A stretch of DNA of 64,000 nucleotides from a bacterium. GTDB lineage: Bacteria; Moduliflexota; Moduliflexia; Moduliflexales; JAUQPW01. The stretch lies in the NCBI GenBank assembly GCA_030550175.1, contig JAUQPW010000007.1:15858-79857 (forward strand). The letters are read 5' to 3'. The notes beneath the pieces were generated by a model. The model was given only the letters and a program-made list of their open reading frames with translations. It was not told where the DNA came from and searched no databases. The translations under genes were made by a program, and so were the position numbers. Position 1 is the stretch's first letter. Every line of letters begins with the position of its first letter. Positions 16,503 to 48,592 of this stretch are shown piece by piece.

Positions 16503-16525
16503 GGATGAAACCTTGGATCAATCCC

Positions 16526-28374: not shown

Positions 28375-29535
28375 ATGAATCGCCGTGATTTTCTTAAAGT
28401 TTTAAGCCTGACTCCCTTTATTTCTTATATCCCTGATCTATCCTTTGCCATCACACCTCAGGCCAACTGGAATAATTTACTTGTCTTACTGGAACTGAAA
28501 GGAGGAAATGATGGATTAAATACGGTTATCCCCTATACCGATCCGACCTATTATGACCTGCGGCCTCGACTCGGAATCACCCGGGATAAGGTCCTACAAC
28601 TGGATGAGAAAGTGGGTTTCCATCCGGCCCTGGAAGCTTTAATGCCATTGTGGAAAAATCGCGAGTTAGCCGTAATTCAGAGTGTGGGTTATCCAGAACC
28701 GAATCTTTCTCATTTTCGTTCCATTGAAATCTGGGAAACAGCTTCCAATAGCAATCAATACTTATCAGAAGGTTGGTTATCTCGGGTTTTTACGGCTTAC
28801 CCTCCTCCTAAAACTTTTGCTGCCGATGCAATCGTGGTGGGGGATTCTGATCTGGGACCTCTGGGTGGAGGTACCGCCCGAGTGGTTGTACTTTCCAATA
28901 TTCAAAGATTCCTGACCCAGGCTAAACAAAATGGTATCCCCAACGGCAGGCCTGCCAATCCGGCATTGGCCCATATTCTCAAAGTTGAGGAAGATATTCG
29001 TCAGGCGGCCGAGGGTTTGAAAACCTCTGACACACTTAAAACCGAGTTCCCCAACTCTCCTTTTGGAAATGCTTTAAAAACCGCATCTCGGGTTATTGCA
29101 GGTAATTCAGGTATCGCCGTTATCAAGGTTTCTTTAGATGGATTCGATACCCACAGCAATCAATTCAACCGGCAAGAACGTTTACTCCGTGAGATGGCTG
29201 AAGGTCTAAGCGCTTTCAGGGAAGCATTGATGGAAATCAACCGTTGGAATTCGACCCTTATCATGAGCTACTCGGAATTTGGCCGCAGACCCAGGGAAAA
29301 CTTAAGTACCGGCACAGACCATGGCACGGCCAATGTTCATTTCATGTTGGGTGGACGTGTGAAAGGAGGTCTATACGGTCAGATCCCTCAACTTAAACCA
29401 TTGGAAGGAGACAATCTCCGCTTTGCCATAGATTTTCGTAGCCTGTATGCAACCGTTATAGAAAAGTGGTGGGGCCTCAACGCAAGCCCCGTGTTAGGAA
29501 GGAAATTTGGGGTGTTGGATATATTAAAAGTTTAA
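28375..29535 (+). CDS. DUF1501-family (sulfatase-like fold) protein with Tat signal
   Basis: MNRRDFLKVL twin-arginine motif. 386 aa. Canonical partner of DUF1800. Confidence 0.72.
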   Translation: MNRRDFLKVLSLTPFISYIPDLSFAITPQANWNNLLVLLELKGGNDGLNTVIPYTDPTYYDLRPRLGITRDKVLQLDEKVGFHPALEALMPLWKNRELAVIQSVGYPEPNLSHFRSIEIWETASNSNQYLSEGWLSRVFTAYPPPKTFAADAIVVGDSDLGPLGGGTARVVVLSNIQRFLTQAKQNGIPNGRPANPALAHILKVEEDIRQAAEGLKTSDTLKTEFPNSPFGNALKTASRVIAGNSGIAVIKVSLDGFDTHSNQFNRQERLLREMAEGLSAFREALMEINRWNSTLIMSYSEFGRRPRENLSTGTDHGTANVHFMLGGRVKGGLYGQIPQLKPLEGDNLRFAIDFRSLYATVIEKWWGLNASPVLGRKFGVLDILKV

Positions 29536-29571
29536 CTTTATGGCAGGACAAAATGATATTTCGGCCTGCTT

Positions 29572-30660
29572 TTAACGCTTAGAATAAAAATGAAGGGTAA
29601 TATGTGGAAAAGACCAGAGGGCAATATAATTCCCATCAAATAACACATTCAGGGATTGGAAAGGTTGTAAGCGGGATAATCCGTAAAGGGACAGAAAAAA
29701 TAGATTGGTTAAGAGGAGTAGACCCAGAAAATGGGAAGGGGAATGTTTGAACTTCCAGAAAGGGTCTCCCTGGTAATTGGCCGGAGGTCGGATATGGGTT
29801 GGGGAATTCGAGCCCTGGGACCTCAGCTCCGAAACCTGGGATTGATAGTAAAGAACCCTTTCGATACCAAACAGATACCAGGTTATATAATGATAAAAAA
29901 TTACAACCTTATTGAAACGGCCGGCGGATATACTGCTTACGATAAATTGATTGTAAAGAAGGATCAACCCGATGATCCCTAAAGTATAAGCGGCACTTCG
30001 CAGAAAGGGATACTCCTCTCCCCGGCGAGTTGAATAAAAGGAACTGATTCCCCAAATCAAAGCCACCCCCAACAAAGCATAAAATCCCCACGGGGGCAGG
30101 TCCCGGTAAAAAGCAGCCAGATCGTATTCTGAAGGTGGGACCAGGCCGTTGGTATAATTGGTATATAAAAGGGCAATAAAAACCAGGATCATAAAAATCC
30201 CATGAGCCTGAACTTTTTTATCCAGTCTGGTGTGCTTAAAGTCAGAACTTCGCTGGACATAGAAGACATGTTCATCGCGGATCATATGAATAATAAAATA
30301 AACCATGAAGGGGAAGCCCCGGTACTGAATAGGAAACCAACCATAATAGATAACAGGAAAAATAATGATCAAAGGGAAGAAAGTTAAGAAGAAAAAAAGC
30401 TTTTTCTTACGGGTTGTCAGCGTTCTCCTTAAAACATTGTAGTGAAACAGGTAAGAAATACCAAAATGCACATGACTGGTAATCATAAAGAAGACTTCCA
30501 GGCTATCAAACCCAAAAAACTTGGCCGTAAGTGACAGGGAAACGAAGGTGATCCCCAGGCTCAGGAAGACATTATCCACAAAGTATTTCTGTGGGTTCCA
30601 GGAAAAGGCTCTCTCCCCGGGGATGGAAGAAATCGAGGTTTTTAAAATCGTTTGTTCCAT
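29572..30660 (-). CDS. polytopic membrane protein, Cys-free, with several His-containing motifs; last gene of the carrier-protein/AsnB operon
   Basis: 362 aa, about 8-10 TM segments. Motifs HVHFGISYLFH, HMIRDEH, HSPSH and HITLH. No Cys, so it is not an exosortase. Confidence 0.4.
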   Translation of the reverse strand: MEQTILKTSISSIPGERAFSWNPQKYFVDNVFLSLGITFVSLSLTAKFFGFDSLEVFFMITSHVHFGISYLFHYNVLRRTLTTRKKKLFFFLTFFPLIIIFPVIYYGWFPIQYRGFPFMVYFIIHMIRDEHVFYVQRSSDFKHTRLDKKVQAHGIFMILVFIALLYTNYTNGLVPPSEYDLAAFYRDLPPWGFYALLGVALIWGISSFYSTRRGEEYPFLRSAAYTLGIIGLILLYNQFIVSSISAGRFNKVVIFYHYITWYLFGIERVLYYQSQVSELRSQGSNSPTHIRPPANYQGDPFWKFKHSPSHFLGLLLLTNLFFLSLYGLSRLQPFQSLNVLFDGNYIALWSFPHITLHFYSKR

Positions 30661-30724
30661 ACGCTTAGTCGGTTAAGAGCTTTTGATAAAAGCCTTCATC
30701 GCTTAAAATTTATCAAAAGTCCTC

Positions 30725-32218
30725 TTAACCGATTTCCCTTAACTCTGTTTTTTTAATCTTACCTGTTTCGGTTCTGGGGAGCTTATCACAGATAATAATA
30801 TATTTGGGTCTTTTGATCGGACTTAAGCGATCAATACAGAATCTCAGGATTTGATCGGAATTCAGATAGAAACCTTCTTTAGGAACTATATAAGCCTGGA
30901 TGGCTTCCCCTAACCATTCATCCGGTACTCCGACTACAGCACATTCTGCAACTCCTTCATGATTGATCAAAACAGCCTCAATCTCAGAGGGGTGGATATT
31001 TTCGCTGCCACTCTTAATCAAGTCTTTTTGGCGCCCTACCAGATATAAATAACCTTCTTCATCTATCCACCCGAGATCTCCGGTGTGAATTCCGTCTTCT
31101 TTAAAAACCTGCCGGGTTGCTTCCTCGTTTTTATAATACCCTATGGCCCTATGATCACACCGAATAACAATCTCTCCTTCAGACCCTTCTTTTCCCTTTG
31201 CAAGGTGGACCTGCACCTCCGGAATAATGCTCCCACAAGATCCTGCTTTTTCTTGAAGTTTTTCCGGAGGTAAAACTGTGACCAGACCCACTTCGGTCAG
31301 GCCATAGGTCAGATAAATATCTACCCGGGGAAAAGCCTCATGAAGGTTCCGGATTAGTTGGGGTGTAACCTGGCCTGCTCCGATTCGGAAGTATCTTAAA
31401 GAAGTTAAGGTGTAACGCCGGATATCACCCCGGGATAATAAGGTGTGGTAAACTGTTGGTACCGCCGAGAGTCCCGTAACTCGCTCTGCTTCCATGGAGG
31501 CCAGAACCGAGTTCGGGGAAAGAAAATTCCGCTCCAGAATTACGGTGGCCCCAACCATGAGATGGGCCAGGAGAAAAATTTTATTCATCCCGAAAAATAA
31601 AGGAAGAACAAGGGAAGTTCGATCTCTAGACGAGATTTGGAAGTATTTAATATTCAACTCCGCATTCCGGATAAGATTCTTGTGGGGAAGAAGTACACCT
31701 TTAGGAATCCCTGTAGTTCCAGAAGTGTAATTGATACAGGCAATAGAAGACGAATCCTTTCCTTTACTTCGATTCTCCGGTTCTTCCCTTCTCCCATTCT
31801 CCCCTTCTGTGATTTTCCCCCACTCATTGATTAATAAAATGGTAAGAGATTCAAACTGATTTGAAATTTGCTCCCATAAAGCCCTTTGAATCTTCTCGGT
31901 AATAAATATTTTAATCTCGCACTGCCGGACAATGCAGGTGATTTCCTCGGGTTTAAGGGATGGGTTTATGTCTACAACGATACCTCCCGTCTTCCAGACG
32001 GCAAAAAAGGCCAGAACCAGTTCCGGGGAGTTCCAGCAACAAATTCCAATTCTTTCCCCCGGCATTGCTCCTCTTCGAATAAGGTCATAGGCTAGCCGAT
32101 TTGTCTGTTCCTCAAGTTCTCGATAGGTGTAGCGGATTCCGTGTGAAATCAGTGCTGTTGCCTCTGGAAACCGATTTGCGCTCTGATTCAGCAAGTCTGC
32201 TAAGGTTTTTACAGACAT
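30725..32218 (-). CDS. AMP-forming acyl/aminoacyl ligase (ANL superfamily, DltA/FadD-like)
   Basis: 497 aa. A3 core YTSGTTGIPKG, the TYGLTE motif, and the C-terminal PKTETGKIKK lysine motif. Confidence 0.85.
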   Translation of the reverse strand: MSVKTLADLLNQSANRFPEATALISHGIRYTYRELEEQTNRLAYDLIRRGAMPGERIGICCWNSPELVLAFFAVWKTGGIVVDINPSLKPEEITCIVRQCEIKIFITEKIQRALWEQISNQFESLTILLINEWGKITEGENGRREEPENRSKGKDSSSIACINYTSGTTGIPKGVLLPHKNLIRNAELNIKYFQISSRDRTSLVLPLFFGMNKIFLLAHLMVGATVILERNFLSPNSVLASMEAERVTGLSAVPTVYHTLLSRGDIRRYTLTSLRYFRIGAGQVTPQLIRNLHEAFPRVDIYLTYGLTEVGLVTVLPPEKLQEKAGSCGSIIPEVQVHLAKGKEGSEGEIVIRCDHRAIGYYKNEEATRQVFKEDGIHTGDLGWIDEEGYLYLVGRQKDLIKSGSENIHPSEIEAVLINHEGVAECAVVGVPDEWLGEAIQAYIVPKEGFYLNSDQILRFCIDRLSPIKRPKYIIICDKLPRTETGKIKKTELREIG

Positions 32219-32285
32219 AGAGTTCGTAACAGGTTATCTCTCTCAACCCCGCGGGGAAGGAGAAGAAGGTAAAGAAATTCTGATC

Positions 32286-34139
32286 TCACACATTAAAAAC
32301 TTTGTGCCACCGTTCTAGAAAATAGAGACGGATCAAGGCATAATGTTTCTGGGTAAAAAGACCCGATGAACCTTCCTGGAAAGATGCCAGGAAAGCGTTT
32401 AACTTTTCTCTATTGAAATAAGCCTCGATGGCGAGATGGGGTTGTTTCAAAGAAGCCAGCATCGTGTTTATCAATTCCTGGACCTCGAAGGGAGGAGGCA
32501 TGGGACTTTTCTTGCGGGTAAGAATGGCTTCCGGAAAATCCGGTAGATACTTCCGAATCATTTGTTTTAAAAAATGTTTTTCATCGGATTTTTGAGTTTT
32601 AATCTCACCCGGAAGATTTAGTACCCACTCTACCAACCGATGGTCCAGAAAGGGAACGCGAACTTCTACCGAGGAGGCCATGCTATGACGGTCTTCAATC
32701 TCCAGCATTTCGTGAAGATGCAATTTAACGAATACATAACTCAGCTTGTTAAAGAAATCCGATGTCTTAGCCCTGGTCAGGTACTCTTCAAACCGGTCCT
32801 GATGGACTTCCCAGTAGAGGGTTTCCCACCGAAATTCATCGGTAACCAGGGTTTCTAAGAAGTCCACGGCACTGATGGGATAACCCGGTTTTCTCGGATC
32901 TGTACGCCAGATCCAGGGAAAGAACATGGTATTCTGTCGGTCCTTCCTTTGTAACCAGTAGTAATAACCTCCAAAAAGTTCATCGGACCCCTGTCCGGAT
33001 AAAAGAACCCGAACCTTTTGAGAAGCTTCCTGATTTAACCGAAAGTGACCATATTCCGAAAGGGTAACCAGAGGTTTTTCCCGATGCCAGATCATTCGGT
33101 CAATTGCTTCACAAAGTGAATCTGTAGGGAGAATATAGAGATGATGATCCGTCTTAAGCTCTCGGGCGAAAAGCGACGCATAATAAGTATCATCCCCCCG
33201 GACTTCCCCTACGATACGATGGGGGTTCTGTTTAAAAACCTCGGTATTTCGGGTATATCCGATGTTAAAGGTCTTTAAAAAAGGATGATACTTCAGGGCG
33301 AGTGCCGTCACAAGGCTTGAATCCAGACCCCCACTTAAACAGGCTCCCAACGGGACATGGGAAAATAACTCATGGTGGACAGACTCATCCAAAAGATTGT
33401 AGAGGTTCTCCAGGTCCCCCTCACCCCGATTTCGGGTTTTCCAGGTCCGGTATCCCATTTCTGAAAAAGGTACATCCCAGTACTCTCGAATTTTTAAACC
33501 CTTCCTGGAAACTTCCAGAAAATGGCCCGGACTTAAGGCATGAATACCCCGAAATAGGGTGTTGGAAACCAAAGGGAATCCGCAGAACAGATACTCTGCT
33601 ACGGCTTCGGGGTTTACTCCTATCGGATGATCGGATTGGGTTAAGATAGCCTTGATTTCTGAGGCAAAGACAAATTTACCGGACTTCATCCAATAGAACA
33701 AAGGCTTTATTCCCAGACGATCCCGTGCCAGAAAAAGCTTCTCCTGTTTCTCATCCCATATGGCAAAGGCAAACATTCCATTCAAAAGATGGAGGCAATC
33801 GGTTCCATACGCTTCATACGCCCGAAGGATAACTTCTGTATCGCTCTCGGTCCTAAAACAATATCCCCGTTTTTCCAAATTTTCTCGGATTTCTCGGTGA
33901 TTGTAAATTTCTCCATTGAATACAATCCACAGGGACTGTTCCCGATTCGATAAAGGCTGAGCTCCTGACTCTAAATCGATAATGGAAAGCCGCTGACTTC
34001 CCAGTCCTATAAACTCTCGAAAGTAAATTCCATCCTGATCCGGTCCTCGATGAGCCAGGGCACGATTCATAGATCGAAGAATCTCAGGATTGACCTTTTC
34101 CGAGTGATCGGTGATAAAAATTCCAGAAATTCCACACAT
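32286..34139 (-). CDS. asparagine synthetase (glutamine-hydrolysing) family amidotransferase, paralog 1
   Basis: 617 aa. N-terminal MCGISGIF with the Ntn Cys2 nucleophile, and an SGGLDSS PP-loop in the synthetase domain. Confidence 0.9.
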   Translation of the reverse strand: MCGISGIFITDHSEKVNPEILRSMNRALAHRGPDQDGIYFREFIGLGSQRLSIIDLESGAQPLSNREQSLWIVFNGEIYNHREIRENLEKRGYCFRTESDTEVILRAYEAYGTDCLHLLNGMFAFAIWDEKQEKLFLARDRLGIKPLFYWMKSGKFVFASEIKAILTQSDHPIGVNPEAVAEYLFCGFPLVSNTLFRGIHALSPGHFLEVSRKGLKIREYWDVPFSEMGYRTWKTRNRGEGDLENLYNLLDESVHHELFSHVPLGACLSGGLDSSLVTALALKYHPFLKTFNIGYTRNTEVFKQNPHRIVGEVRGDDTYYASLFARELKTDHHLYILPTDSLCEAIDRMIWHREKPLVTLSEYGHFRLNQEASQKVRVLLSGQGSDELFGGYYYWLQRKDRQNTMFFPWIWRTDPRKPGYPISAVDFLETLVTDEFRWETLYWEVHQDRFEEYLTRAKTSDFFNKLSYVFVKLHLHEMLEIEDRHSMASSVEVRVPFLDHRLVEWVLNLPGEIKTQKSDEKHFLKQMIRKYLPDFPEAILTRKKSPMPPPFEVQELINTMLASLKQPHLAIEAYFNREKLNAFLASFQEGSSGLFTQKHYALIRLYFLERWHKVFNV

Positions 34140-34197
34140 AACTGAAAGTCTAAAGTTTAAAATTCGAAACCTCTTATAATTTCCTTAATTTGAAGCT

Positions 34198-34674
34198 TCA
34201 AACTTTTGGACTTTGGACTGAATAGGCAACGCAGGTGTTTCGAACCGAGAGTCGATGCTGCTCCAGGAAAGCTATTTTCTCTTCAGGGGGATACGGCTGT
34301 TGGGGATTACCCATTTCCATACACTTCTTGGCTAAAAGCCCTTGAACCGAGATATGACAGGCGTCCAATATAAGGTTGGTGAGATGAGTACATCCTTCCT
34401 TTCCACCGATTTGCTTCTCCAAAAGAAAGGCCAGACCTGGCTTGACCTGGAGTCCCACACATTTAGATAGCTGGGTCAGAGCGGTGGGACAGACAGGATA
34501 AGGCGTTTGATTTATCCAGGGTTTAATCGAAACGATCACCAGATCCGGATATTGGAAGATCACTTCGACCCCCATATCATGGAAAGAATCTTTCATACTT
34601 ACCGTTACAACAAACCGGTTTTCCGGGTTGTCCCAGAGAACTTTATAATCTTTTTTTCGATGAAAAAGCTCCAT
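34198..34674 (-). CDS. hypothetical protein (158 aa) between the AsnB and ligase genes
   Basis: Tightly packed in the operon. Contains several Cys (CPTALTQLSKC, CTHL). No family recognised. Confidence 0.35.
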   Translation of the reverse strand: MELFHRKKDYKVLWDNPENRFVVTVSMKDSFHDMGVEVIFQYPDLVIVSIKPWINQTPYPVCPTALTQLSKCVGLQVKPGLAFLLEKQIGGKEGCTHLTNLILDACHISVQGLLAKKCMEMGNPQQPYPPEEKIAFLEQHRLSVRNTCVAYSVQSPKV

Positions 34675-34692
34675 ATTCTCCCATTCTCCCGT

Positions 34693-36426
34693 TCACTTCA
34701 GTAAAGACTTTTGGGTCTTACCCAATACGGTCTTGGGAAGGGAATCCGAGAATTCAATCACTTTAGGTACTTTAAAAGATTCCAGGTAACGGGCGCAGTA
34801 CCCAATCAATTCATGGGGGTCGGGTGGAAATTTAGGATCACAAACGACCCAGGCTTTTACCACTTCCCCTAAGAGTCCGGCCGGATCCGGGATTCCTGTC
34901 ACCGCAACTTCTCTAACCGCCGGATGCTTACGCAAGACGGCTTCTATTTCCTCTGGACTGATCTTCTTTCCCCCGCTGTTAATCAATTCATCTGCACGAC
35001 CCAGTAAGAAGAGATAGTTTTCTGAATCTAACCAGCCATAATCCGGGGTCAAAAGAGTTCCATCGGACCGCAAGCATTGCCGCGTAAGATCTGGCCGGTT
35101 CCAATAACCTTTCATAATCATAGAACTTTTAACCGCTACACGACCGGGTTTGTTAACCCCTACAGGCTGACCCTGCTCATCTAAAATCGAAAGTGTTACG
35201 CCTGGATAAGGCTGTCCTACGGAACCCGCTTTCCAATCCGGTTCGGTGACTTCTCGAAAACACACCCGACTGACTTCTGTAAGACCATAGGTTACAAATA
35301 ACCGCGTGGTCGGTAAAGCTGTTTTGAGTTGGGTGAGGAGAGAAGGAGGAGCCGGTGAAGTACCCAGGGTAATATACCGCAGATGCTTTTGGCACCTTTT
35401 CAACATGGATTCATAGCGATCCATAAAAAGCCTTAATCCACCGGGAACTCCGGAGAATCCTGTAACCTGTTCCTCATGAAATTGCTTTAAAACCTGGGCC
35501 GGGTAGGTCAAATTCTTTGCCAGGATTAAAGTTCCTCCTGCACGCAGACAACCATCTATCTCCCGGAGTCCGTAGAGATGGAAAAGAGGGACCAGAATTC
35601 CAATTCGATCCCGAGGAGTCAATTTCAGAAACTCCTTTCCAGTCTCTGCAATAACCTCTAAATTTCCATGGGTCAGCATAACCCCCTTTGGTTGTCCGGT
35701 TGTTCCACTGGTATAAATAATAGCGGCCAGATCATCTCCAGTGATCGGGGCTTCAAAGGGATACTTTTTATCGGTTATGTCCTGTTGTTTCCTTTGTTCC
35801 GGGCGTTCAAATAAGCTCTTACCCCCCTTTTTCCTCTCTGGCCCTCCGACATCCCTCTGCATGCCGGGGGGATTGGGAGAATTAGGGAAAGCGAGGAGGT
35901 GGGAGGATGAAGGGAATCCAGGGGAGTCTATCGAAGTACTCGTAAAAAAACTACCTTTGAAAGCCGCAACCGGAGGATGAGGATGCGAGATCCGGAAGGC
36001 GCGGGAATATGAAGACAGAAAGAAAATTTCCACGCCGTTTTCTCCCAGGGCTATGGGATCCCCAAAACCCAGAGAGATCAGATTTACGGTATGGGAATGG
36101 ATTCGCTTTTCCAGGAACAACGCTTTGGGTGAACAATCTTCAAGGGTATGGGTTAAGGCTTCTAAGGGCATGGAGGGGTTTAAAGGAACGACCACTCCTC
36201 CAACTTGAAGGATAGCGAGATAAGCTATCACAAAGTCTGGAGAATTATCCAGGAGCAGACAGACGCGATCTCCCAGGGATATTCCGTTTTGTTGTAAAAT
36301 GTTGGCAAGTTGATCTACTGAAGTATCTAACTGAGCATAGGTAAGGCGATACTCTTCCTGGACTACCGCTTCTTTTCCTGGAGAAAGAATCCTGTATTGT
36401 TTTAAAAAATCGTGTAATCTGTCCAT
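34693..36426 (-). CDS. AMP-forming ligase (ANL superfamily) with a roughly 110-aa low-complexity insertion
   Basis: 577 aa. Core motifs YTSGTTGQPKG, YGLTE and PKTVLGKTQK. A Pro/Ser/Gly-rich insert (…SHPHPPVAAFKGSFFTSTSIDSPGFPSSSHLLAFPNSPNPPGMQRDVGGPERKKGG…) sits upstream of the A3 motif. The start overlaps the ACP stop. Confidence 0.8.
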   Translation of the reverse strand: MDRLHDFLKQYRILSPGKEAVVQEEYRLTYAQLDTSVDQLANILQQNGISLGDRVCLLLDNSPDFVIAYLAILQVGGVVVPLNPSMPLEALTHTLEDCSPKALFLEKRIHSHTVNLISLGFGDPIALGENGVEIFFLSSYSRAFRISHPHPPVAAFKGSFFTSTSIDSPGFPSSSHLLAFPNSPNPPGMQRDVGGPERKKGGKSLFERPEQRKQQDITDKKYPFEAPITGDDLAAIIYTSGTTGQPKGVMLTHGNLEVIAETGKEFLKLTPRDRIGILVPLFHLYGLREIDGCLRAGGTLILAKNLTYPAQVLKQFHEEQVTGFSGVPGGLRLFMDRYESMLKRCQKHLRYITLGTSPAPPSLLTQLKTALPTTRLFVTYGLTEVSRVCFREVTEPDWKAGSVGQPYPGVTLSILDEQGQPVGVNKPGRVAVKSSMIMKGYWNRPDLTRQCLRSDGTLLTPDYGWLDSENYLFLLGRADELINSGGKKISPEEIEAVLRKHPAVREVAVTGIPDPAGLLGEVVKAWVVCDPKFPPDPHELIGYCARYLESFKVPKVIEFSDSLPKTVLGKTQKSLLK

Positions 36427-36428
36427 GT

Positions 36429-36701
36429 TTATTGAATTCCAAACTTCTCTCCAAGGTACCTCATTACGGCTTCTAAGGAGCCAAAGTTTTCAGGCAGGAT
36501 ATCTTCCCCTGGAATTTTGATCTTACAGAGTTTTTCAATAAACACAACAAAATCCAGAAGAGAAAGGGAATCAAAGATCCCTTGATCGATAAAGGAGTCT
36601 GTACTTTGAAGGGTGGTGATCCCCTTCCCCTGTAAAGCCGGCAGGCTCAGAAGATAATTTTCGAGTGCCTGTACTACTTTTGTGGGTTGTTCGTTGATCA
36701 T
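36429..36701 (-). CDS. acyl/peptidyl carrier protein (DltC/ACP-like)
   Basis: 90 aa with the phosphopantetheine-attachment Ser in GIFDSLSLLDF. Confidence 0.7.
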   Translation of the reverse strand: MINEQPTKVVQALENYLLSLPALQGKGITTLQSTDSFIDQGIFDSLSLLDFVVFIEKLCKIKIPGEDILPENFGSLEAVMRYLGEKFGIQ

Positions 36702-36805
36702 TCTTTGTTGTTCCCGGTTTAATTTTTTATCGTCCGTTATCTGTTATCTGCCGTCTTTAGCTATAGAAAAACAACAGGCAACAGGGTAACGGGGTAACAG
36801 GTCAA

Positions 36806-38038
36806 TCAACCGAAAAATAGGCGCTGATAAGCCTGGAGTGTTACTTCCAACGGCTTACCGGTGATTCCATCCCAAAAACTTCGATGAATAAGGGCTATAA
36901 ATGAAAAGGTAAGAGCAATTTTTAAAGCTAAAAGGAGGGTTCTCATCCCAGGACTCTTCACTTTAAGAGAAAATTCTTTTATCCAGGGGGTTTGGGAAAT
37001 CTTTGAAATAATAGCGACGGCTAAACCAAAGGATCCAAAGGCCAGGGTTATTTGAATGGTAGCGTCCAGGGTTATGGCCGGCGTAACCAGAAGATGCCAG
37101 AGACCGCTGACTAAAAAGGTCGTTATGATTTTAGCAGTTATCTGCGTATGCCTCCAGAAGGGATAAAAAACATGGGTCATCAGCCATCGATAAGTCGAAA
37201 TGTTGGAAGTTTTCCAGTACTGGACAGGGCTGGAGGACAGAAGTGGATTTGCAAAATTTTCATAAAGATTAAATCCTAGAATTCGAGACAGGGCAATAGC
37301 CATATCTGTAAAGCCGGAGAAAGCCCAATAAAAGCGAATTAAAAGCAGACAGAAAGTACCCCATACAAAAAGCCTCGGATCCAGGTGTTGAAGAAAAGGG
37401 TGATGGATAGAACCCTCTGCCCATTGTTGCAGTTTATTGTAGAGATTCTGAGAGTAAGGAGCCAAAACAAAAAACTTAATACCTCCCCAGATCATTTTAA
37501 GGAGGTTATAAGGAACCAGTTGGGACCAGTTAGAAATCTGGGGTTGATAGCTTTTATAAAAATCATTGAACGAAACCACGGGTCCGGCGAATAGAGTAGG
37601 AAGAAAAAATATATAAAGGAGAAACTGATTGAATCGATCCCAACCGGTTAAAGAGGTTTTAGGGCGTTTACTGAGGGCAAAGTCTATGCTTCGAAGCAGG
37701 AAAAAGGCTTCTATTCCCTGGCGACCCCAGAAAACGTACTTGATAGCCGGTCTGGGAAATTGGTATTTAAGAAAAACAAAAGCGGCTAAAACTCCCAAAA
37801 CCAAAATCAGCTTTTGATTTCGGGTCCAGTTTGTTTCCCCGATGAGATAGACGGTCAGGGCCGTCAGGGTAAATATTAGAAAATTTAACGGGGGAAACAG
37901 CCACAAAAGGGCTCCCAGGCTAATAAAGAGCATGGAGTATTCGCGAACCTGGAATTTTCCCATCCATTCCGATGAAGGCTTTGCCGGAGTTACGTAAAAA
38001 ATCGGAGTTGTTGTCAGGAGACCGGTGAGATTTTTCAT
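36806..38038 (-). CDS. membrane-bound O-acyltransferase (MBOAT; AlgI/DltB family)
   Basis: 410 aa polytopic protein. MBOAT signatures FLPTLFAGPV and SGLWH (catalytic His). It overlaps the upstream AsnB gene by 4 nt. Confidence 0.75.
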   Translation of the reverse strand: MKNLTGLLTTTPIFYVTPAKPSSEWMGKFQVREYSMLFISLGALLWLFPPLNFLIFTLTALTVYLIGETNWTRNQKLILVLGVLAAFVFLKYQFPRPAIKYVFWGRQGIEAFFLLRSIDFALSKRPKTSLTGWDRFNQFLLYIFFLPTLFAGPVVSFNDFYKSYQPQISNWSQLVPYNLLKMIWGGIKFFVLAPYSQNLYNKLQQWAEGSIHHPFLQHLDPRLFVWGTFCLLLIRFYWAFSGFTDMAIALSRILGFNLYENFANPLLSSSPVQYWKTSNISTYRWLMTHVFYPFWRHTQITAKIITTFLVSGLWHLLVTPAITLDATIQITLAFGSFGLAVAIISKISQTPWIKEFSLKVKSPGMRTLLLALKIALTFSFIALIHRSFWDGITGKPLEVTLQAYQRLFFG

Positions 38039-39852
38039 ACCTTAAAAACCCGATGCAAAAGTTCCAGGGTTAAAAGATACATGGAAATCTGCCACTGGGT
38101 GAGCAGATCTACTTCTTCGAACTCATTTTTTCTTTCTAAGAAATCCTCTAATTGAGAACGGTCGAAATAGGAAATAGCCCTTGAGTTTGGGCTTAAAAGG
38201 AGATCTCGGGTGAGCTGGAGTTGGTTGAACACCGATTGTGGATCCCGGGGTATGGGCATATGGGTTTTTTTTCGGTAAAGGATGGAATCCGGAAGAAAGC
38301 CCCGGAGCATTTTTTTGAAGATATATTTACTCTGGCCGTTTTTAACTTTTAATTTTGAAGGCATAGGTGCCAGGAGCTCAACCAATCGGTGATCCAGAAA
38401 AGGAGGTCGTGTTTCCACCCCAAAAGCCAGGGAGGTTCGGTCATGGAACTCTAAAAGCTCCAGAAGGAAGAACTTTAAATACAGATAAAGGGCCTGATAT
38501 AAGATATCCTGGTTAGAAACCCGGATCAGGTGGTCTGACAACTTTTGATAGAAGAGTTCTTTGGGTCTGATCGCCTTGCGAAACTCCTGGGAAAAGAGTT
38601 TGAGCATAACTTTCCAGGAAGGAGCCCAGGGAAAGTAGGTAATCTGTTGGGTTTTTAAAATATCATCCAGACCCAAACCTCGCGATCCCAGATACCCGGC
38701 CAGGAGTTCATCGGCACCTTCTCCACAGAGAACTACGGTGGCATAATTCTTAAGCTTTTCATAGAGGAGGTACATGGTGGCAGCCCCTTTATTAAAGGGT
38801 CTTTCTAAATGCCAGGTCAACCGTTCCAGGGTAGAAAAATAGATTTCCGGAGAGATTAAAAATTCATGATGTTTCGTTCCCAACGTTTGGGCGACGATTC
38901 TTGCATAGGTGGCATCATGGTCTTCCCCTTTCCAGGGATTTGGGAAGTCAATGGTAAAAGTCTGCAAGGGGCCGGATAGCATCTGGCCGGCCCAGGTTGC
39001 GATACTGCTGGAATCTGTACCTCCGCTGAGTAAAACACCTAACGGAACTTCCCCGACCAACCGGAGCCGGACGGCATCTTTAAGGAGTTCCATGAGGTGT
39101 TGCCCGTAATACTTTTCCGCCTCTTCCCCTTTAAGAGGAACGGATGGGGTTGCCTCTGGAGAAGGAATTTCCCAGTACTTGTTCAAACGATAATGAAAAC
39201 CGGGCCGACCCGTATGGGCCATGGCGGTTAAGGTATAGCCCGGAGGAAGGGTCCATATCCCCTTAAACATGGTATGGGCTTCTAAAAGGGTCCCACAAAG
39301 AAGTACCTCGGCAACGGCTTCCGGATTAATATCCGGGGAAATGGCAGGATGCTCTAAAATGGCTTTAGCTTCCGATGCAAAAATAAATTGCCCATCGGCT
39401 ATGGTATAGTGAAGAGGAACAATGCCCATCCGATCCCGGGCCAGAAAAAGTTTTTTTCCGGGATGATCCCAAATGGCAAAGGCAAACTGGCCGTTAAATT
39501 GTTCTACACAATCCTCTCCGAAAGCTTCATAGGCATGTAAAACGACTTCCGTGTCTGAATCTGTTTTAAAACGATATCCCCGGCTTTTCAGAAGACGTTG
39601 AAGCTGTCGATAATTAAAAATTTCCCCGTTGTACGTGATCCAGATCGATCCATCTTCATTGGACATGGGTTGACGCCCGTATTCACGATCGATAATGGAT
39701 AGTCGCCGGTTTCCCAAACCTACCCGGTTGTTAAGATAGATGCCTGCATCGTCAGGACCTCGATGGCGCTGAATTTCATTCATTTTTTCCAGGGTTTCTA
39801 CCTCAACAGGCTTATCTAAAGCAAAATTAAAGATTCCACTAATACCACACAT
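38035..39852 (-). CDS. asparagine synthetase (glutamine-hydrolysing) family amidotransferase, paralog 2
   Basis: 605 aa. MCGISGIF N-terminus and an SGGTDSS PP-loop. Confidence 0.9.
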   Translation of the reverse strand: MCGISGIFNFALDKPVEVETLEKMNEIQRHRGPDDAGIYLNNRVGLGNRRLSIIDREYGRQPMSNEDGSIWITYNGEIFNYRQLQRLLKSRGYRFKTDSDTEVVLHAYEAFGEDCVEQFNGQFAFAIWDHPGKKLFLARDRMGIVPLHYTIADGQFIFASEAKAILEHPAISPDINPEAVAEVLLCGTLLEAHTMFKGIWTLPPGYTLTAMAHTGRPGFHYRLNKYWEIPSPEATPSVPLKGEEAEKYYGQHLMELLKDAVRLRLVGEVPLGVLLSGGTDSSSIATWAGQMLSGPLQTFTIDFPNPWKGEDHDATYARIVAQTLGTKHHEFLISPEIYFSTLERLTWHLERPFNKGAATMYLLYEKLKNYATVVLCGEGADELLAGYLGSRGLGLDDILKTQQITYFPWAPSWKVMLKLFSQEFRKAIRPKELFYQKLSDHLIRVSNQDILYQALYLYLKFFLLELLEFHDRTSLAFGVETRPPFLDHRLVELLAPMPSKLKVKNGQSKYIFKKMLRGFLPDSILYRKKTHMPIPRDPQSVFNQLQLTRDLLLSPNSRAISYFDRSQLEDFLERKNEFEEVDLLTQWQISMYLLTLELLHRVFKV

Positions 39853-39854
39853 TT

Positions 39855-40109
39855 TTAACCTCTTATCCTCTTACGTTGGATATAATCACAAATGGTATGG
39901 ATACTTTGAAAATTTTCAGGTTGAAACTCTGCAGGAGACACGGTCAGATCAAATTGCCCTTCCAGAAAGTCGATCAGATGGATCAAAGTCAAGGAGTTAA
40001 GAATACCGGTTTGCAAAAGAGGAGTATCTTTATCTAATTTTTCAACCTCAGTTTCCGGTAAGATCTGTTCGGCCAGGAATTTTCTGATTATTTTCTCTAC
40101 TTCGTCCAT
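39855..40109 (-). CDS. acyl/peptidyl carrier protein (second copy)
   Basis: 84 aa with the Ser in GILNSLTLIHLI. It lies immediately upstream of AsnB paralog 2. Confidence 0.65.
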   Translation of the reverse strand: MDEVEKIIRKFLAEQILPETEVEKLDKDTPLLQTGILNSLTLIHLIDFLEGQFDLTVSPAEFQPENFQSIHTICDYIQRKRIRG

Positions 40110-40113
40110 AGGT

Positions 40114-41280
40114 TTAATCCGTTAAATTTAATAGCACCCCTTCCTCAGGAGGAATGGCCCTCTGATCGGCCAACTTCCTTAAAGCGGCAACTGTGGTAGC
40201 TGCTGTATAACCGCAGTCTATTTTTTCTAACTGAAACAACAGCGCCCTGGCTTCTTTAATCTCTGTTTCGGTAACACTGATAAAGGTGCCGTTTGTTTCT
40301 TGAACCAGTTGATAGATATAAGGGTAACTGGTTACAGGATTGCCTCTTAGGATGGCTTTGGCAATTCCCTTAGGGTTTTTAACGATATGATGTTCCCGAA
40401 TAACCGGAGACCCCTCTTCGAAGGCTTTAACCATAGGACAACAACTCTCCTGCTGGACACAAACCATTCGGGGGATATGTCGGATTTTTCCCAAAGTCTG
40501 AAATTCTTTAGCTCCCTTGTAGGTTCCATAAACCCCCATGGCACTGCTGACAGCTTGAAAATACCACCGGATCTCTACGGGAACCTGATCAACGGCTTCC
40601 AGGAAAGCCAATTTAAGTCCTTCCCGTCGTGCTGGATTAAAAAAACCTGCCTCAAAGGGCAAATGATGGTGGAAAGCATATTCTCGTGCCTGATTAAAAG
40701 CCTCTGCAAAAGTCCTTCCTGTCAAGACGTGGAGTAGAACGCCGGGATTAAAATCAGAAAACCGAACCCGTTCCTGGAATTCTCCCCCGATGAAAAGATG
40801 CATTTTAAAATAGGGATATTTGAGAATTCCATATGCCAGAGCATTGGAGCTGTTCCCGGTCGAAGAACTTACAAACTCTGTAATCTGAAGCTCTTTAAAA
40901 AAAGATAAAACCACAGCAGCCATTCGATCTTTTGTCGTACCGGTTGGATTTCGAGATTCGACTTTTAAAAAAACCTGTTTCAGTCCCAAGGCTTCTCCCA
41001 GAGTTTTTGCATGCACACAGGGAGTATTTCCTTCTCCTAAAGGGAGAAGGTTTTGAGAATCCTGGATAGGAAGTAAATCGAAATATTTTTCCAGGGAGTG
41101 TGGCGAATCGTAGATCTTGACCCGAGATAAATCGTAATAGATATCCACAAGACCCCCACAATAGGTACACCTAGGGGTATAAGCATGGGGAAAGGTTTTC
41201 TGGCATTGGTTACAGCGATGAGTCAGTTTCAAATTTGTCTTTTTACTCCACACTTGCAAGGGTTGATCAGTTTTTAGCAT
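40114..41280 (-). CDS. fold-type II PLP-dependent enzyme (threonine synthase / cysteine synthase-like) with N-terminal Cys4 zinc ribbon
   Basis: 388 aa. CNQC…CTYC ribbon, followed by ESRNPTGTTKDR (PLP-Lys, cf. NPTGSFKDR of threonine synthase). Confidence 0.68.
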   Translation of the reverse strand: MLKTDQPLQVWSKKTNLKLTHRCNQCQKTFPHAYTPRCTYCGGLVDIYYDLSRVKIYDSPHSLEKYFDLLPIQDSQNLLPLGEGNTPCVHAKTLGEALGLKQVFLKVESRNPTGTTKDRMAAVVLSFFKELQITEFVSSSTGNSSNALAYGILKYPYFKMHLFIGGEFQERVRFSDFNPGVLLHVLTGRTFAEAFNQAREYAFHHHLPFEAGFFNPARREGLKLAFLEAVDQVPVEIRWYFQAVSSAMGVYGTYKGAKEFQTLGKIRHIPRMVCVQQESCCPMVKAFEEGSPVIREHHIVKNPKGIAKAILRGNPVTSYPYIYQLVQETNGTFISVTETEIKEARALLFQLEKIDCGYTAATTVAALRKLADQRAIPPEEGVLLNLTD

Positions 41281-41428
41281 TCCGTAAAGGAAATTCAGTG
41301 CTTAGAATTTTTGCAAATGTAGAGTATTTTATCTAACCCCTCCCCCCAATCCTTCTCCCATATGGAGGGTGTAGGAAATCCATGGGTTACCCCTACCTCC
41401 TCAAGAGAAAGGACTGGGGGTTAAGGAA

Positions 41429-42712
41429 TTACACCTGTTCTACAACCGTGACATTTCCAAAGGGAATCACATAAGTCGAAGGATTCGATTTTCTAAGCTT
41501 TTCCAATGCGAGTTTTTTTGCTTCTTCCAAATGAGTAGCCGGAATAAAGCCCAAGAGTCCTACCTGATCTTGTGGACACCGGGAGATCAGGATCACCTGA
41601 ATTCGCTGCAAAATCTCTTTGAGCAGGTAAGAATTATGTCCGGTGAGATCGTACCGTTCCTTTACAGCTCTGGCTAATTCCGGGAGAGAGGAAAATTTTG
41701 CCCAACGCAAGAAGCCCTCTTTAATACCCTGGGGACAGGCTGCCAGGAGGATGAAAACCCCTCCATCGGCCACACACGTATGGGTATTCATAAGGGTCTT
41801 GAGCGCTTGCATGAAGGAAATATCATAAGGATGGCCTCCACAACTGGCCACGGCCAGTTCTGCTTTTTCTTTAAAGGGAACTTTAAAAAGGTTATCTACC
41901 ACATGACAACCCATGGTGTGGGCAGAAACGGGGTGACCTGCATAGACATGGGTTAGTTCATGGTTTAAATTCACAAGGGTATTTACCAGAAAACTGGGTC
42001 GAAATAGAGCGGCGGCCTCTAACATGTCCAGATGTACGGGATTTCCTTCCAGATGACCATTCTTGGCCAGGATATTCCGTGGTTGAATTTCATCACCGGA
42101 CATAACCAGTTTATGATTATGTAAAATAGTTTCATATCCCGATACCCCGGGTAAGACGGCTTTACGGCCACCCGTGAATCCGGCAAAATAATGATGGGTA
42201 ATCCGGCCTGTCAAAATCTTAATATCCGCTTCATAAGCCAGCCGATTGACCTCGATGGTATTCCCAAAGGAGGTTTTTCCTAAATAAACATGGTTTTCTT
42301 TGTTCAGGCAGTCGTGTCCGATCACCCGGATTTCCTTATCAAAGTAAGGCCCCAGAATGATATCCATATCTTCGGTGGTAAACCGTTCATGAGTCCCCGT
42401 CGCAATAATAACCGTGATGTCTTGCTTACGGATTCCGGCCCGGCTTAGTTCCCGAATCAAAAGCGGCATAAAAATATCGCCCCGGGTTACACGATCCTTA
42501 CCGGATACCAAAATTACAGCGGTTTGCTTGGATTTAGCCAACTCATATAGGGGCTCCCTTTCAATGGGTTTTTGAAGGGCTTTTTCTACTAAAAAGTCGG
42601 GGGGATGAGCAGGGGAAACGGAATGAGGCAAGAGAACCCCTAGAAAATTTCTTTTGGGAACCTCTGTCTGTATAACTTCAGAGCCATAACCTAACCGGAT
42701 TATCTCAAACAT
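41429..42712 (-). CDS. LarA-like (nickel-pincer lactate racemase family / DUF2088) protein; first gene of the operon
   Basis: 427 aa. N-terminal DUF2088-like region followed by a LarA C-terminal-like domain. A good RBS (AGGAGG) lies upstream. Confidence 0.65.
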   Translation of the reverse strand: MFEIIRLGYGSEVIQTEVPKRNFLGVLLPHSVSPAHPPDFLVEKALQKPIEREPLYELAKSKQTAVILVSGKDRVTRGDIFMPLLIRELSRAGIRKQDITVIIATGTHERFTTEDMDIILGPYFDKEIRVIGHDCLNKENHVYLGKTSFGNTIEVNRLAYEADIKILTGRITHHYFAGFTGGRKAVLPGVSGYETILHNHKLVMSGDEIQPRNILAKNGHLEGNPVHLDMLEAAALFRPSFLVNTLVNLNHELTHVYAGHPVSAHTMGCHVVDNLFKVPFKEKAELAVASCGGHPYDISFMQALKTLMNTHTCVADGGVFILLAACPQGIKEGFLRWAKFSSLPELARAVKERYDLTGHNSYLLKEILQRIQVILISRCPQDQVGLLGFIPATHLEEAKKLALEKLRKSNPSTYVIPFGNVTVVEQV

Positions 42713-42761
42713 AACAGACCCTCCTGCTCATTTGAGCTTTTAAGATGGCTATCGGTAAGTA

Positions 42762-42783
42762 GAAACTGCACAGAATATGCCAG
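42762..42783 (-). promoter_or_regulatory. candidate sigma-54 (-24/-12) promoter for the LarA…membrane-protein operon
   Basis: The minus strand reads ctGGcatattctgtGCagtttc. This is TGGCAT-N6-TGCA with the canonical 12-nt GG-to-GC spacing, about 45-70 nt upstream of the 42712 start codon. Confidence 0.3.
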
Positions 42784-42870
42784 CTTCATAGTTTTGGGAC
42801 ACGGAGTTCTGGGACACGGAGACCTTGGGACTTGGAGACGCGGGGAAATGTCTCCGTGTCTCCGCGTCCC
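42775..42870. repeat. complex GGGACACGGAGA-type direct/inverted repeat hairpin in the divergent promoter region
   Basis: gggacacggag appears twice, followed by cttgggacttggagacgcgggg aaatg tctccgtgtctccgcgtccccaagtcccag. A stem of 18-19 bp is possible, with alternative pairings. Confidence 0.5.
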
Positions 42871-43050
42871 CAAGTCCCAGTTATCTTGGTGATGAATAAG
42901 GGGAAATAAGGGCAAATCTTCATGTAAAAGCAAAATAAACTTCGCACTATTTATTTTCCCCTTGACTTGAAAGTTCAGGCTGAATAAGATCGTATTCGCT
43001 CCAAGTTATGGGATTTTCATACCTTAAACCTTCATTATTTTCCGGGGTTC

Positions 43051-43881
43051 ATGATAAGGATTTCATCTGCGCAGGGTTTTACGCTCTTAGAGACCCTTAT
43101 GGTGACGGTTTTGTTTACAACGGTTCTGATTTTATCTTTCGAATTTTTTCAACAACACCAGAAAATCTACTTCCGGTATCGGAGTGACACAGAGATTATT
43201 CAAAATGCCCGGATAGCTTTAGATGCCATTTGTTCGGATCTGAGAGTTGCCGGTTATCATTTAGACCGGCAACAAAATCAACCTGTTTTTATCGAGGCGG
43301 CTCCATTTCAAATTATCCTGAATGCAGATAAGGACCCCGGCGAGCCGGTTTTGATTAAAAACGGTTTTGTAATGCTGTCCAGTGGTACTCCCTATATTAA
43401 CTCCCAGGATTACTCTACAGGGGCTGAAACTATCCGATGGACTTTAGATTCGAATGATGATGGTCTCATCGATAACCGAGATATCGATGATAATCCAGAG
43501 GAGCGGGCCTCTCGATTTAACGACAGTGATTTCGTTTTAATTCGAGAACTGAACGGAGGGCCGGATCAGCAGGTGGCTCTTTATCTTAGAGGACCGATAG
43601 ATGCTAAAAACAATCGTACGTACGTGCCTCCTTTGTTTCAATATTGGATTTTGTCTTCCGGTGGCTCTTTAACTTTATGGGGGGATACTGATGGGAATGG
43701 ATTTTTAGAGGGGAATGAAATTTATTTCCCACCCCTTACTTCTCAAAGTGTTTTAGAGAAAATCAGGCGGATTACCGTGATGGTTTCGGTAGAATCCGAT
43801 GAGTGGGACCCTTTTCGTAATCCACCCGGCCATCAACAGGTCATCTTGAGTTCAGAGGTTGCAGTAAGGAACAACTTTTAA
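43051..43881 (+). CDS. prepilin-type N-terminal cleavage/methylation domain protein (type IV pilin / pseudopilin-like)
   Basis: N-terminus SAQGFTLLETLMVTVLFTTVLIL (G|FTLLE class III signal). 276 aa. Confidence 0.65.
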   Translation: MIRISSAQGFTLLETLMVTVLFTTVLILSFEFFQQHQKIYFRYRSDTEIIQNARIALDAICSDLRVAGYHLDRQQNQPVFIEAAPFQIILNADKDPGEPVLIKNGFVMLSSGTPYINSQDYSTGAETIRWTLDSNDDGLIDNRDIDDNPEERASRFNDSDFVLIRELNGGPDQQVALYLRGPIDAKNNRTYVPPLFQYWILSSGGSLTLWGDTDGNGFLEGNEIYFPPLTSQSVLEKIRRITVMVSVESDEWDPFRNPPGHQQVILSSEVAVRNNF

Positions 43882-43960
43882 AATTCATAAAGAAAGTCTA
43901 AACCCCCAGAGTTGCCCTATTTTCAAGCTGTGGGACGATCTTAAAAGACCTTGAGAGCCT

Positions 43961-45599: not shown

Positions 45600-45746
45600 A
45601 CAGAGGGCAAAGGAGGTTTATTATATCAGCTGTAAGTGTGACTATCATCGTCAGACTATATCCTGAGCCTTATCCATCATATCCCGAATGCCTGGCTTCT
45701 TCACCATGTGAGGATTACATCCAAGGTTGAAGAAGGGCTAAATTTT

Positions 45747-48585: not shown

Positions 48586-48592
48586 AGTTCAC

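Follow-up and report, generated by a model that had tools for sequence, protein, structure and literature searches.

In bacterial pathways built on a membrane-bound O-acyltransferase (MBOAT), the acyl group passes from the MBOAT to the tyrosine of an FxYxxF motif, then to an SGNH enzyme and finally to a polymer (PMC12148441). In acetyl-CoA-using MBOATs the tyrosine lies on a pair of additional C-terminal helices, which DltB lacks; in the Dlt system it lies on the microprotein DltX. Among bacterial MBOATs, only DltB is described as carrier-protein-fed (PMC12148441). We analysed a cluster of eleven genes within a 64,000-nt stretch of bacterial DNA (hereafter the window) that sets a ligase, a carrier protein and an MBOAT side by side, as does the Dlt system for D-alanylation of Gram-positive teichoic acids (DltA, DltC, DltB, DltX and DltD). 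The cluster differs from Dlt in having two integrated amidotransferases of the AsnB type and a diderm host (lptABC, BamD). We lean, without great assurance, towards reading it as a modular, carrier-protein-dependent MBOAT acyl-export system, a distant variant of Dlt that would deliver an amidated non-amino acid.

Other described systems resemble the cluster in part. The MBOAT-SGNH pairs PatA/PatB, AlgI/AlgJ/AlgX and WssH/WssI have the MBOAT superfamily and its invariant histidine in common with it. These pairs use acetyl-CoA and no carrier, whereas the cluster has an adjoining carrier and the C-terminal tyrosine of its MBOAT is not conserved. Their extracytoplasmic MBOAT partner is paralleled by a fusion in relatives of the cluster, but the partner there is thioredoxin-like, CxxCH-containing and copper-monooxygenase-like rather than an SGNH enzyme. 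Like the system proposed here, AlmEFG of Vibrio cholerae achieves a Gram-negative modification, that of lipid A with glycine, by means of a ligase and a dedicated carrier; AlmG, however, is an LpxL-like acyltransferase at the cytoplasmic face and not an MBOAT, the Alm ligase resembles DltA, and the system has no amidotransferase.

The cluster occupies 29572-42712, where eleven minus-strand open reading frames (ORFs) follow one another. A sequence-only reading of this DNA had named these genes and their families, and Pfam searches bear out every coordinate and family assignment. The features are as follows:

41429-42712, minus strand: LarA, 427 aa, with Lar_N and LarA_C (Pfam, as for the domains below)
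40114-41280, minus strand: pyridoxal phosphate (PLP) enzyme, 388 aa, with PALP
39855-40109, minus strand: carrier protein ACP1, 84 aa, with PP-binding
38035-39852, minus strand: AsnB1, 605 aa, with GATase_7 and Asn_synthase
36806-38038, minus strand: MBOAT, 410 aa, with MBOAT
36429-36701, minus strand: carrier protein ACP2, 90 aa, with PP-binding at 20.4 bits, slightly below the 20.8-bit cutoff, and a DSL serine motif
34693-36426, minus strand: ligase Lig1, 577 aa, with AMP-binding (in two stretches) and AMP-binding_C; carries an insert
34198-34674, minus strand: DUF2889 protein, 158 aa, with DUF2889
32286-34139, minus strand: AsnB2, 617 aa, with GATase_7 and Asn_synthase
30725-32218, minus strand: ligase Lig2, 497 aa, with AMP-binding
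29572-30660, minus strand: Memb362, a 362-aa polytopic membrane protein that belongs to no Pfam family and has no cysteine
45708-46538, plus strand: Sfp-type 4′-phosphopantetheinyl transferase (PPTase), 276 aa from a GTG start, with ACPS (2.9e-19) and AASDHPPT_N

The genes of this cluster travel together. All window proteins were mapped by tblastn onto 18 related metagenomic loci (L numbers below), and orthologues 37-60% identical recur together in about 18 independent metagenomic loci. Their G+C content ranges from 0.44 to 0.73, and the hosts are therefore very different. The orthologues are cleanly separable from paralogues, as exemplified by AsnB1, whose orthologues are 53-59% identical whereas its cross-matches with AsnB2 reach 35-39%. 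Co-conservation had been set beforehand as the test of the sequence-only reading, and the orthologues do stay together in distant relatives. It is hardly credible, then, that housekeeping genes (asparagine synthetases, acyl-CoA synthetases, a threonine synthase, a lactate racemase and an O-acetyltransferase) lie side by side here by chance. Each gene alone would get an ordinary name, and TIGR01536, the generic model for asparagine synthase, is passed by both AsnBs; but the synteny, kept despite rearranged gene order, effectively refutes chance juxtaposition, and housekeeping could be served by a third AsnB (46597-48585), which scores better.

Two gene orders are found among the relatives. The order is colinear with that of the window in L109, L003, L006, L090 and L105, and is split into two convergent blocks in L088, L091, L096-L103 and L110. 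The first block reads LarA-PLP-ACP1-AsnB1-MBOAT(-X) and the second (PPTase-)ACP2-Lig1-DUF2889-AsnB2-Lig2. Wherever the contig is long enough, MBOAT, ACP2, Lig1 and at least one AsnB co-occur, and these form the invariant core, which is smaller than the eleven-gene operon that had been put forward as the conserved unit. LarA, the PLP enzyme, ACP1, the DUF2889 protein, the AsnB2-Lig2 pair and Memb362 are optional modules. LarA is present in 9 of the 18 related loci and the PLP enzyme in 11; AsnB2 and Lig2 adjoin in 12, AsnB2 always being paired with Lig2; and ACP2 adjoins Lig1 in every locus long enough to show it. The smallest form, AsnB1-MBOAT-ACP2-Lig1, is seen in L005 and L007, while L092 adds only the PLP enzyme to it and L006 is without LarA and the DUF2889 protein. 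L100 and L104, with the lineage of L101 and L103, keep the second block and are missing LarA, the PLP enzyme, ACP1 and AsnB1 beside MBOAT. The 4-nt overlap between AsnB1 and MBOAT recurs in L006, L007, L090 and L092. In L091, an apparent AsnB2-Lig2 fusion (832 aa) was set aside, as its tblastn matches are split over frames and it is probably an assembly frameshift artefact. In an all-versus-all ORF clustering of the related loci, antisense ORFs of the high-GC loci made up the bulk of the output; fusion frames of MBOAT, described below, and some recurring neighbours also emerged.

As to the anatomy of the cluster in the window, one junction is a 4-nt overlap (AsnB1/MBOAT, 38035-38038), where several such overlaps had been claimed; of the others, three leave 2-4 nt between genes and six leave 18-148 nt. 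The G+C content of the cluster (0.446) matches that of the window (0.441) and so gives no sign of recent transfer. Scans of the operon for promoters, terminators and repeats gave counts equal to shuffled expectation and no notable repeats, and an Rfam scan of the window gave no matches. In NCBIfam, the cluster proteins fall below every cutoff scored, apart from both AsnBs against TIGR01536. Full-text literature searches found no characterised pathway matching the cluster, in agreement with the sequence-only reading, and no paper that pairs an MBOAT with LarA, or with an AsnB plus a carrier.

The anchor gene of the cluster encodes an MBOAT (Pfam PF03062, 1.7e-13, 51.1 bits against a cutoff of 27) that belongs to a sharply bounded clade. 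Among 5.8 billion proteins, 21 protein clusters match it at 219-874 bits, and the next matches, at 70 bits or less, are generic AlgI/DltB-like proteins. A profile of the clade run against 185,579 species-representative genomes (one per species) found no clade member; generic MBOATs of at most 32% identity were recovered, save for one 85-residue fragment at 42%. The clade is thus rare in sequenced genomes and turns up in metagenomes. H315 (in SGLWH), H297 and N261 are invariant in it, and H315 falls within the stretch aligned to DGAT1. Among solved structures, the profile matches DltB best (6BUG, 1e-12), with weak DGAT1 matches next (3e-5). Moreover, the protein is DltB-sized, the carrier protein beside it is a further DltB-like trait, and on our own reading of the helix distinction drawn in PMC12148441 its 410-aa length would mark it as DltB-like. 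It is not an equivalog of DltB, scoring 43.6 bits against a cutoff of 375 with the DltB model TIGR04091.

No counterpart of the second half of the Dlt relay was found in the window. The MBOAT's C-terminal end reads LQAYQRLFFG, and the tyrosine position is occupied by Y, F or L across 17 clade members. F.Y..F occurs nowhere in any cluster protein, nor, across 29000-43100, within the final 20 residues encoded by reading frames of at least 20 codons, and no ORF of at least 120 aa in the window matches the SGNH family. A 77-aa ORF at 42700-42933, upstream of LarA, was considered as a DltX-like microprotein and rejected, as it is not hydrophobic and has no motif. Dlt uses DltA-type, DltD/SGNH and DltX/FxYxxF components, and the cluster and window are without these. 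The Dlt/AlgI analogy drawn by the earlier reading consequently holds for the cytoplasmic half of the pathway and fails for the SGNH and FxYxxF partners.

This gap speaks for a lipid or small-metabolite pathway, in which the MBOAT would acylate a membrane acceptor directly, as eukaryotic MBOATs do, to give an amide-containing lipid or lipo-acid, with Memb362 as a second lipid-modifying enzyme. The SGNH partner and tyrosine shuttle that are missing here are used by polymer-acylating bacterial MBOATs (PMC12148441), the lipid acyltransferases of the DGAT1 type are the next structure matches after DltB, the helices of Memb362 carry conserved histidines and acidic residues, and L110 has a polyketide synthase, a PF05118 protein and a radical S-adenosylmethionine (SAM) enzyme as neighbours. 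We nevertheless consider such a pathway unlikely. The DGAT1 matches are weak, the ligases are as close to short/medium and aromatic acid ligases as to fatty-acid ligases, so that they give no sign peculiar to lipids, and relatives in which the MBOAT is fused to a redox-type domain of the exported kind argue for periplasmic chemistry.

That fusion is found in sister lineages. In the loci of convergent order, the MBOAT is followed by a protein of about 600 aa, 44-84% identical among loci, which has a thioredoxin-like domain and a CxxCH motif and whose C-terminal domain has Cu2_monoox_C as its sole Pfam match (6.7e-4 and 0.1, below cutoff). In L088 and L097 the partner is a separate protein of about 626 aa; in L088 its gene starts 4 nt past the MBOAT stop, and we read its sequence as beginning with a putative lipoprotein-type signal (…LAGGC). 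In L101 a single ORF (66-3458) runs without a stop from the MBOAT into the partner protein. The same continuous frame is present in L100 and L103, and a 986-aa gene call spans it in L110 (13754-16714). The lineage in which the fusion occurs is a high-GC sister lineage. Such a natural fusion places the MBOAT C terminus and its output on the exported side and ties the MBOAT to a periplasmic partner that is not an SGNH enzyme. Hence, the extracytoplasmic role that had been proposed for the MBOAT is strengthened by the relatives.

The ligases also depart from Dlt. Judged by their sequences, Lig1 and Lig2 are ANL-superfamily enzymes of the acyl-CoA-synthetase type and not DltA-like. The highest NCBIfam scores of Lig1, none of which reaches its cutoff, are with fatty-acid, malonyl and o-succinylbenzoate CoA ligases. 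Among the 25 best NCBIfam matches listed for Lig1 and Lig2, nearly all are acyl-CoA-synthetase families and the DltA model is absent. Lig1 also matches a generic amino-acid adenylation domain model, again below cutoff. Its closest stand-alone ligases in the PDB are malonyl-CoA synthetase and oxalate-CoA ligase; those of Lig2 (AMP-binding, 1.6e-79) are FadD13, oxalyl-CoA synthetase and feruloyl-CoA synthetase. Lig1 carries the segment PLFHLYGL, which we take to sit where amino-acid-activating domains carry their amino-binding aspartate and to be typical of acyl-CoA-synthetase-type ligases. Together, the best family scores and this segment suggest that the substrate is a non-amino acid. An amidated or aminoacyl group had been predicted; because the ligases are acyl-CoA-synthetase-like, a plain or hydroxy acid is likelier than the aminoacyl option.

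The insert noted earlier in Lig1 is real. As defined by alignment, it comprises about 75 aa before the A3 motif (residues ~150-230; window 35720-36020), is rich in proline, serine and lysine, and is probably disordered. It shows no repeat or mobile-element signature and is hypervariable even between close relatives: Lig1 has 577 aa here, 530 aa where the MBOAT is 94% identical and 505 aa where the MBOAT is ~72% identical.

Both carriers rank as generic PP-binding proteins, and each keeps its serine. In ACP1 (PP-binding, 3.8e-06) the serine of GILNSLTL is invariant across orthologues, and in ACP2 (PP-binding, 6e-4) that of GIFDS(L/M)SLLDF is invariant in all orthologues; a PENF motif is common to the two. 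The NCBIfam matches of ACP1 are all weak and below cutoff (OlsHI-associated carrier protein, 56 bits; AmcB, 46; DltC NF003464, 31 against 68), and ACP2 has no DltC match in NCBIfam. We rejected the link to ornithine lipids that the best ACP1 match might offer: its 56 bits compare with a cutoff of 130, and the enzyme described in the OlsH/OlsI paper, encoded in another operon, is of the GH3 type and works without carrier protein or CoA. The Sfp-type PPTase is likely the activator of ACP1 and ACP2. A divergent PPTase at 45747-46538 had been called cognate to the cluster; the gene is present on the plus strand, but it is not immediately divergent, being set apart from the operon by three plus-strand genes (43051-45380). 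Its orthologues (36-37% identity) stand directly beside ACP2 in five other loci (L091, L096, L101, L103 and L110), which supports the link of the window PPTase to the cluster.

The cluster also encodes a pair of AsnB-type enzymes. Both start with MCGISG, keeping the N-terminal nucleophile cysteine, and have intact PP-loops (SGGTDSS in AsnB1, SGGLDSS in AsnB2), so that both are expected to be active glutamine-dependent amidotransferases. They are 39% identical to each other, with clearly separate orthologue sets. Against TIGR01536 the two score 462 and 482 bits (cutoff 267). The best PDB match of AsnB1 is the hydroxyamidotransferase 7YLZ (6.7e-77), presumably TsnB9 of trichostatin biosynthesis, which is a precedent for an AsnB fold amidating a pathway-specific acid, although its pathway differs from that of the cluster. 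AsnB1 keeps the cysteine and a standard glutamine-hydrolysing domain; plain ammonia transfer is therefore expected, unlike in 7YLZ. OxyD is another AsnB-like enzyme of this kind, forming a malonamyl unit.

Once the generic model is set aside, both AsnBs score highest among specific NCBIfam models with TIGR03108, that of the XrtA/PEP-CTERM amidotransferase, and this raises a different function for them. They might amidate uronic-acid carboxylates of a surface polysaccharide or lipopolysaccharide (LPS), as is proposed for enzymes of the WbpS type and for those of exosortase loci, while the ligase, carrier and MBOAT separately O-acylate the same polymer. The accessory set of XrtA/PEP-CTERM loci does combine an ANL ligase, an AsnB, a carrier and a PLP enzyme of unknown chemistry, as here. 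The likeness to that set claimed by the earlier reading stands as a resemblance, but all scores are well below the family cutoffs. AsnB1 and AsnB2 reach 453 and 429 bits with TIGR03108, far below its cutoff of 817, and the ligase model TIGR03098 gives 282 and 338 bits against 592, about half of the cutoff, although both models rank with the highest-scoring named matches. Here, moreover, the PLP enzyme is ThrC-like, whereas that of the exosortase set is a decarboxylase, and the anchor gene is an MBOAT. Scans of the window found no exosortase or exopolysaccharide (EPS) genes.

Further points for joint work on one polymer come from other loci. The species-representative scan also recovered a locus in a gammaproteobacterial metagenome-assembled genome (L086:3145-11973) that joins a family 4 glycosyltransferase (GT4), a PEP-CTERM-type AsnB (574 bits against 817), a second GT4, a DltA-like ligase (209-214 bits with the DltA model), an 81-aa ORF, a DltB-like MBOAT (175 bits) and a 340-aa protein that belongs to no family. 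It is non-orthologous to the cluster. A Dlt-like module within an EPS locus shows that the general idea is not unique, and the family of the cluster is still distinct. In addition, genes for sulfotransferases and synthesis of 3′-phosphoadenosine 5′-phosphosulfate (PAPS), or for glycosyltransferases, lie beside the cluster in L006, L091, L092 and L104. No glycosyltransferase, flippase, polymerase or exosortase is encoded in the window, however, and the AsnB genes are interleaved with the carrier and MBOAT genes in every architecture, one of them overlapping; this interleaving suggests a single pathway. We therefore regard separate action of the AsnBs on a polymer as quite unlikely.

The neighbours of the cluster are themselves varied. 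Sulfotransferases lie beside it in three unrelated loci (L104:6101-8953, L006:206-1426 and L091:1-4708); L104 adds an ATP sulfurylase/adenosine 5′-phosphosulfate kinase, and L091 an arylsulfotransferase and methyltransferases. From these neighbouring sulfotransferase and PAPS-synthesis genes, the acceptor or product may be sulfated. In L110 (5151-7355) the PPTase-ACP2 end is bordered by genes for a protein of the Asp/Asn-beta-hydroxylase family (PF05118) and a radical SAM enzyme, with a polyketide synthase close by, and in L092 a JmjC/cupin_8 oxygenase follows Lig1.

Two optional enzymes bear on the nature of the acyl unit in an acyl-export system of the Dlt kind. LarA is full length, with Lar_N (1.7e-61) and LarA_C both above Pfam cutoffs, and its best solved structure, aligned end to end, is the malate racemase Mar2 (6D6Z, 1.1e-68). 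Residue counting along the Mar2 alignment places H108, H174, K184 and H200 in it, which we assume to be the catalytic, cofactor-anchoring and nickel-binding positions. The protein is thus predicted to be a 2-hydroxyacid racemase or epimerase of the type that depends on the nickel-pincer nucleotide; its best NCBIfam scores, LarAH10 (377 bits, cutoff 540) and malate racemase LarAH6 (364 bits, cutoff 500), lie below cutoff and assign neither subfamily nor substrate. It has domains and key residues in common with the described LarA superfamily (PMC11770544, PMC7583248), with Mar2 and LarAH10 as best matches, and a carrier-protein/MBOAT operon context was not found in the literature searched. In the role of the alanine racemase that serves Dlt, LarA would make a plausible parallel.

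The PLP enzyme is of fold-type II (PALP, 2.2e-43), with an N-terminal CxxC...CxxC zinc ribbon and its PLP lysine in NPTGTTKDR. Its best PDB match is threonine synthase 2ZSJ (3e-29). By its sequence features it is classed as ThrC-like, and by curated thresholds it is not a threonine synthase: it scores 144 bits against 303 with PRK08197, 92.5 against 167 with TIGR00260 (thrC) and 98 with cysteate synthase. The malate-racemase-like LarA, the AsnBs, the ThrC-like enzyme, the closeness of the ligases to malonate and oxalate ligases and the Asp/Asn-hydroxylase-family gene of L110 are weak hints that lead us to guess, with little confidence, at an acid from the C4 dicarboxylate/aspartate family; conversion of malate to malamate would be an example.

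By analogy, a mechanism for a Dlt-like export system can be laid over the observed anatomy, co-conservation, conserved catalytic residues and MBOAT fusion. The PPTase would turn ACP1 and ACP2 into their holo forms, and Lig1 would adenylate a carboxylic acid and load it as a thioester onto ACP2. AsnB1 would then use glutamine-derived ammonia and ATP to convert a free carboxylate of the unit into a carboxamide; since it would act on a carboxylate left free in the loaded unit, the unit should be a di-acid. Through His315, the MBOAT would take the acyl group from the carrier at the cytoplasmic face and deliver it periplasmically to a lipid or polymer. Where present, LarA would supply the right stereoisomer of a 2-hydroxy acid, much as alanine racemase serves Dlt; the acid itself would be formed or modified by the ThrC-like PLP enzyme, and Lig2, ACP1, AsnB2 and the DUF2889 protein would provide another, likewise amidated, unit. 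Transfer beyond the MBOAT would proceed without an SGNH enzyme and tyrosine shuttle; in the lineage of the window it may involve Memb362, and in sister lineages it would involve the periplasmic thioredoxin-like/CxxCH/copper-monooxygenase-like domain.

Several points weigh against this mechanism. A DltA-type ligase, an SGNH partner and an FxYxxF shuttle, on the MBOAT or on a microprotein, were not found within the window, beyond which their genes could lie, and neither were glycosyltransferase, polymer-export or other acceptor-making genes. The window also has none of larB, larC and larE beside its LarA. The loci of the L100/L104 and L101/L103 lineage, by lacking AsnB1, the PLP enzyme, ACP1 and LarA at the MBOAT, show that the pairing of ACP1 with Lig2 is not strict. 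The substrate of the AsnBs could be the acceptor and not the acyl unit. Finally, by the positive-inside rule and a low-confidence model, the conserved charged residues of Memb362 appear to lie near the cytoplasmic face, which is a poor fit with a role as periplasmic acceptor.

Memb362 is a lineage-specific accessory, found only in L109, L003 and L005 among the related loci. It has no PDB sequence match, and few homologues: six in a word-indexed search of 5.8 billion proteins, and 15 (E ≤ 1e-3) when 1.84 billion representatives were searched in full with HMMER. H125, H257 and H353 are invariant among them and D129 nearly so. Its AlphaFold2 model is all-helical and poor (predicted local distance difference test, pLDDT, 56). 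The DUF2889 protein, in turn, has four invariant cysteines as well as histidines and may bind a metal. Its predicted structure is good (pLDDT 83.7), but its resemblance to known folds is weak: Foldseek searches with this model returned nothing at an E-value of 0.001 or better. In the literature, DUF2889 is mentioned in two papers but not characterised there.

If the proposed mechanism is true, the cluster represents a second carrier-protein-fed MBOAT family, in a diderm, with another ligase type, built-in amidation and an apparently different periplasmic hand-off. It is possible, though we would not expect it, that this amounts to a new MBOAT class. In such a class, 2-hydroxy or C4-dicarboxylate cargo on a carrier, amidated by AsnB, would cross the inner membrane without an SGNH/acyl-tyrosine relay; the recipient would be the redox-type domain or the 10-helix, histidine-rich Memb362, and the product a new decoration of the envelopes of soil and freshwater diderms. 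Characterisation could reveal a new envelope modification and would test how universal the tyrosine shuttle is. It would also give a first physiological context for a carrier-coupled LarA-family racemase, for DUF2889 and for an orphan membrane family. As the hosts are uncultured, practical value is limited for now.

The surroundings of the cluster are those of a diderm chromosome. Besides the cluster, the window encodes lptC, lptA, lptB, rpoN, hpf, HPr kinase, phosphotransferase system (PTS) components, a BamD-like lipoprotein and a DUF1800/DUF1501 pair; the lptCAB genes, the BamD-like protein and the DUF1800/DUF1501 pair point to this assignment. The closest named genome, L109 (GCA_035559535.1), is labelled Candidatus Limnocylindrales (Chloroflexota); GCA_900174565.1 is another metagenome-assembled genome with the cluster. 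Given the Lpt, BamD and DUF1800-DUF1501 genes of the window, which are typical of diderms, the Limnocylindrales label is doubtful and the bin is probably mislabelled or misbinned.

Elsewhere in the window, the minus-strand run at 46597-51501 comprises a BamD/YfiO-like tetratricopeptide-repeat lipoprotein, a five-repeat PEGA-domain protein, a 280-aa protein belonging to no Pfam family and, last, the third AsnB (46597-48585; 662 aa). The latter outscores AsnB1 and AsnB2 (Asn_synthase, 360 bits) and is separate from the cluster in this lineage. At 58112-59222 on the plus strand, a Roadblock/LC7 protein beside a small Ras/Arf-like GTPase forms an MglB/MglA-like polarity pair, just upstream of which DUF4388 and HAMP-domain proteins are encoded (56137-58072). 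An IstB-like ATPase of the IS21 helper type lies at 55156-55914 (plus strand), with no adjoining IstA transposase among ORFs of at least 120 aa, and in L088 a Y1 transposase lies directly upstream of LarA. The region 13826-18889, with a G+C content of 0.47-0.49 against ~0.44, encodes a class III aminotransferase, a TauD-family dioxygenase and an M20 peptidase, and may form a small island of its own, catabolic or biosynthetic.

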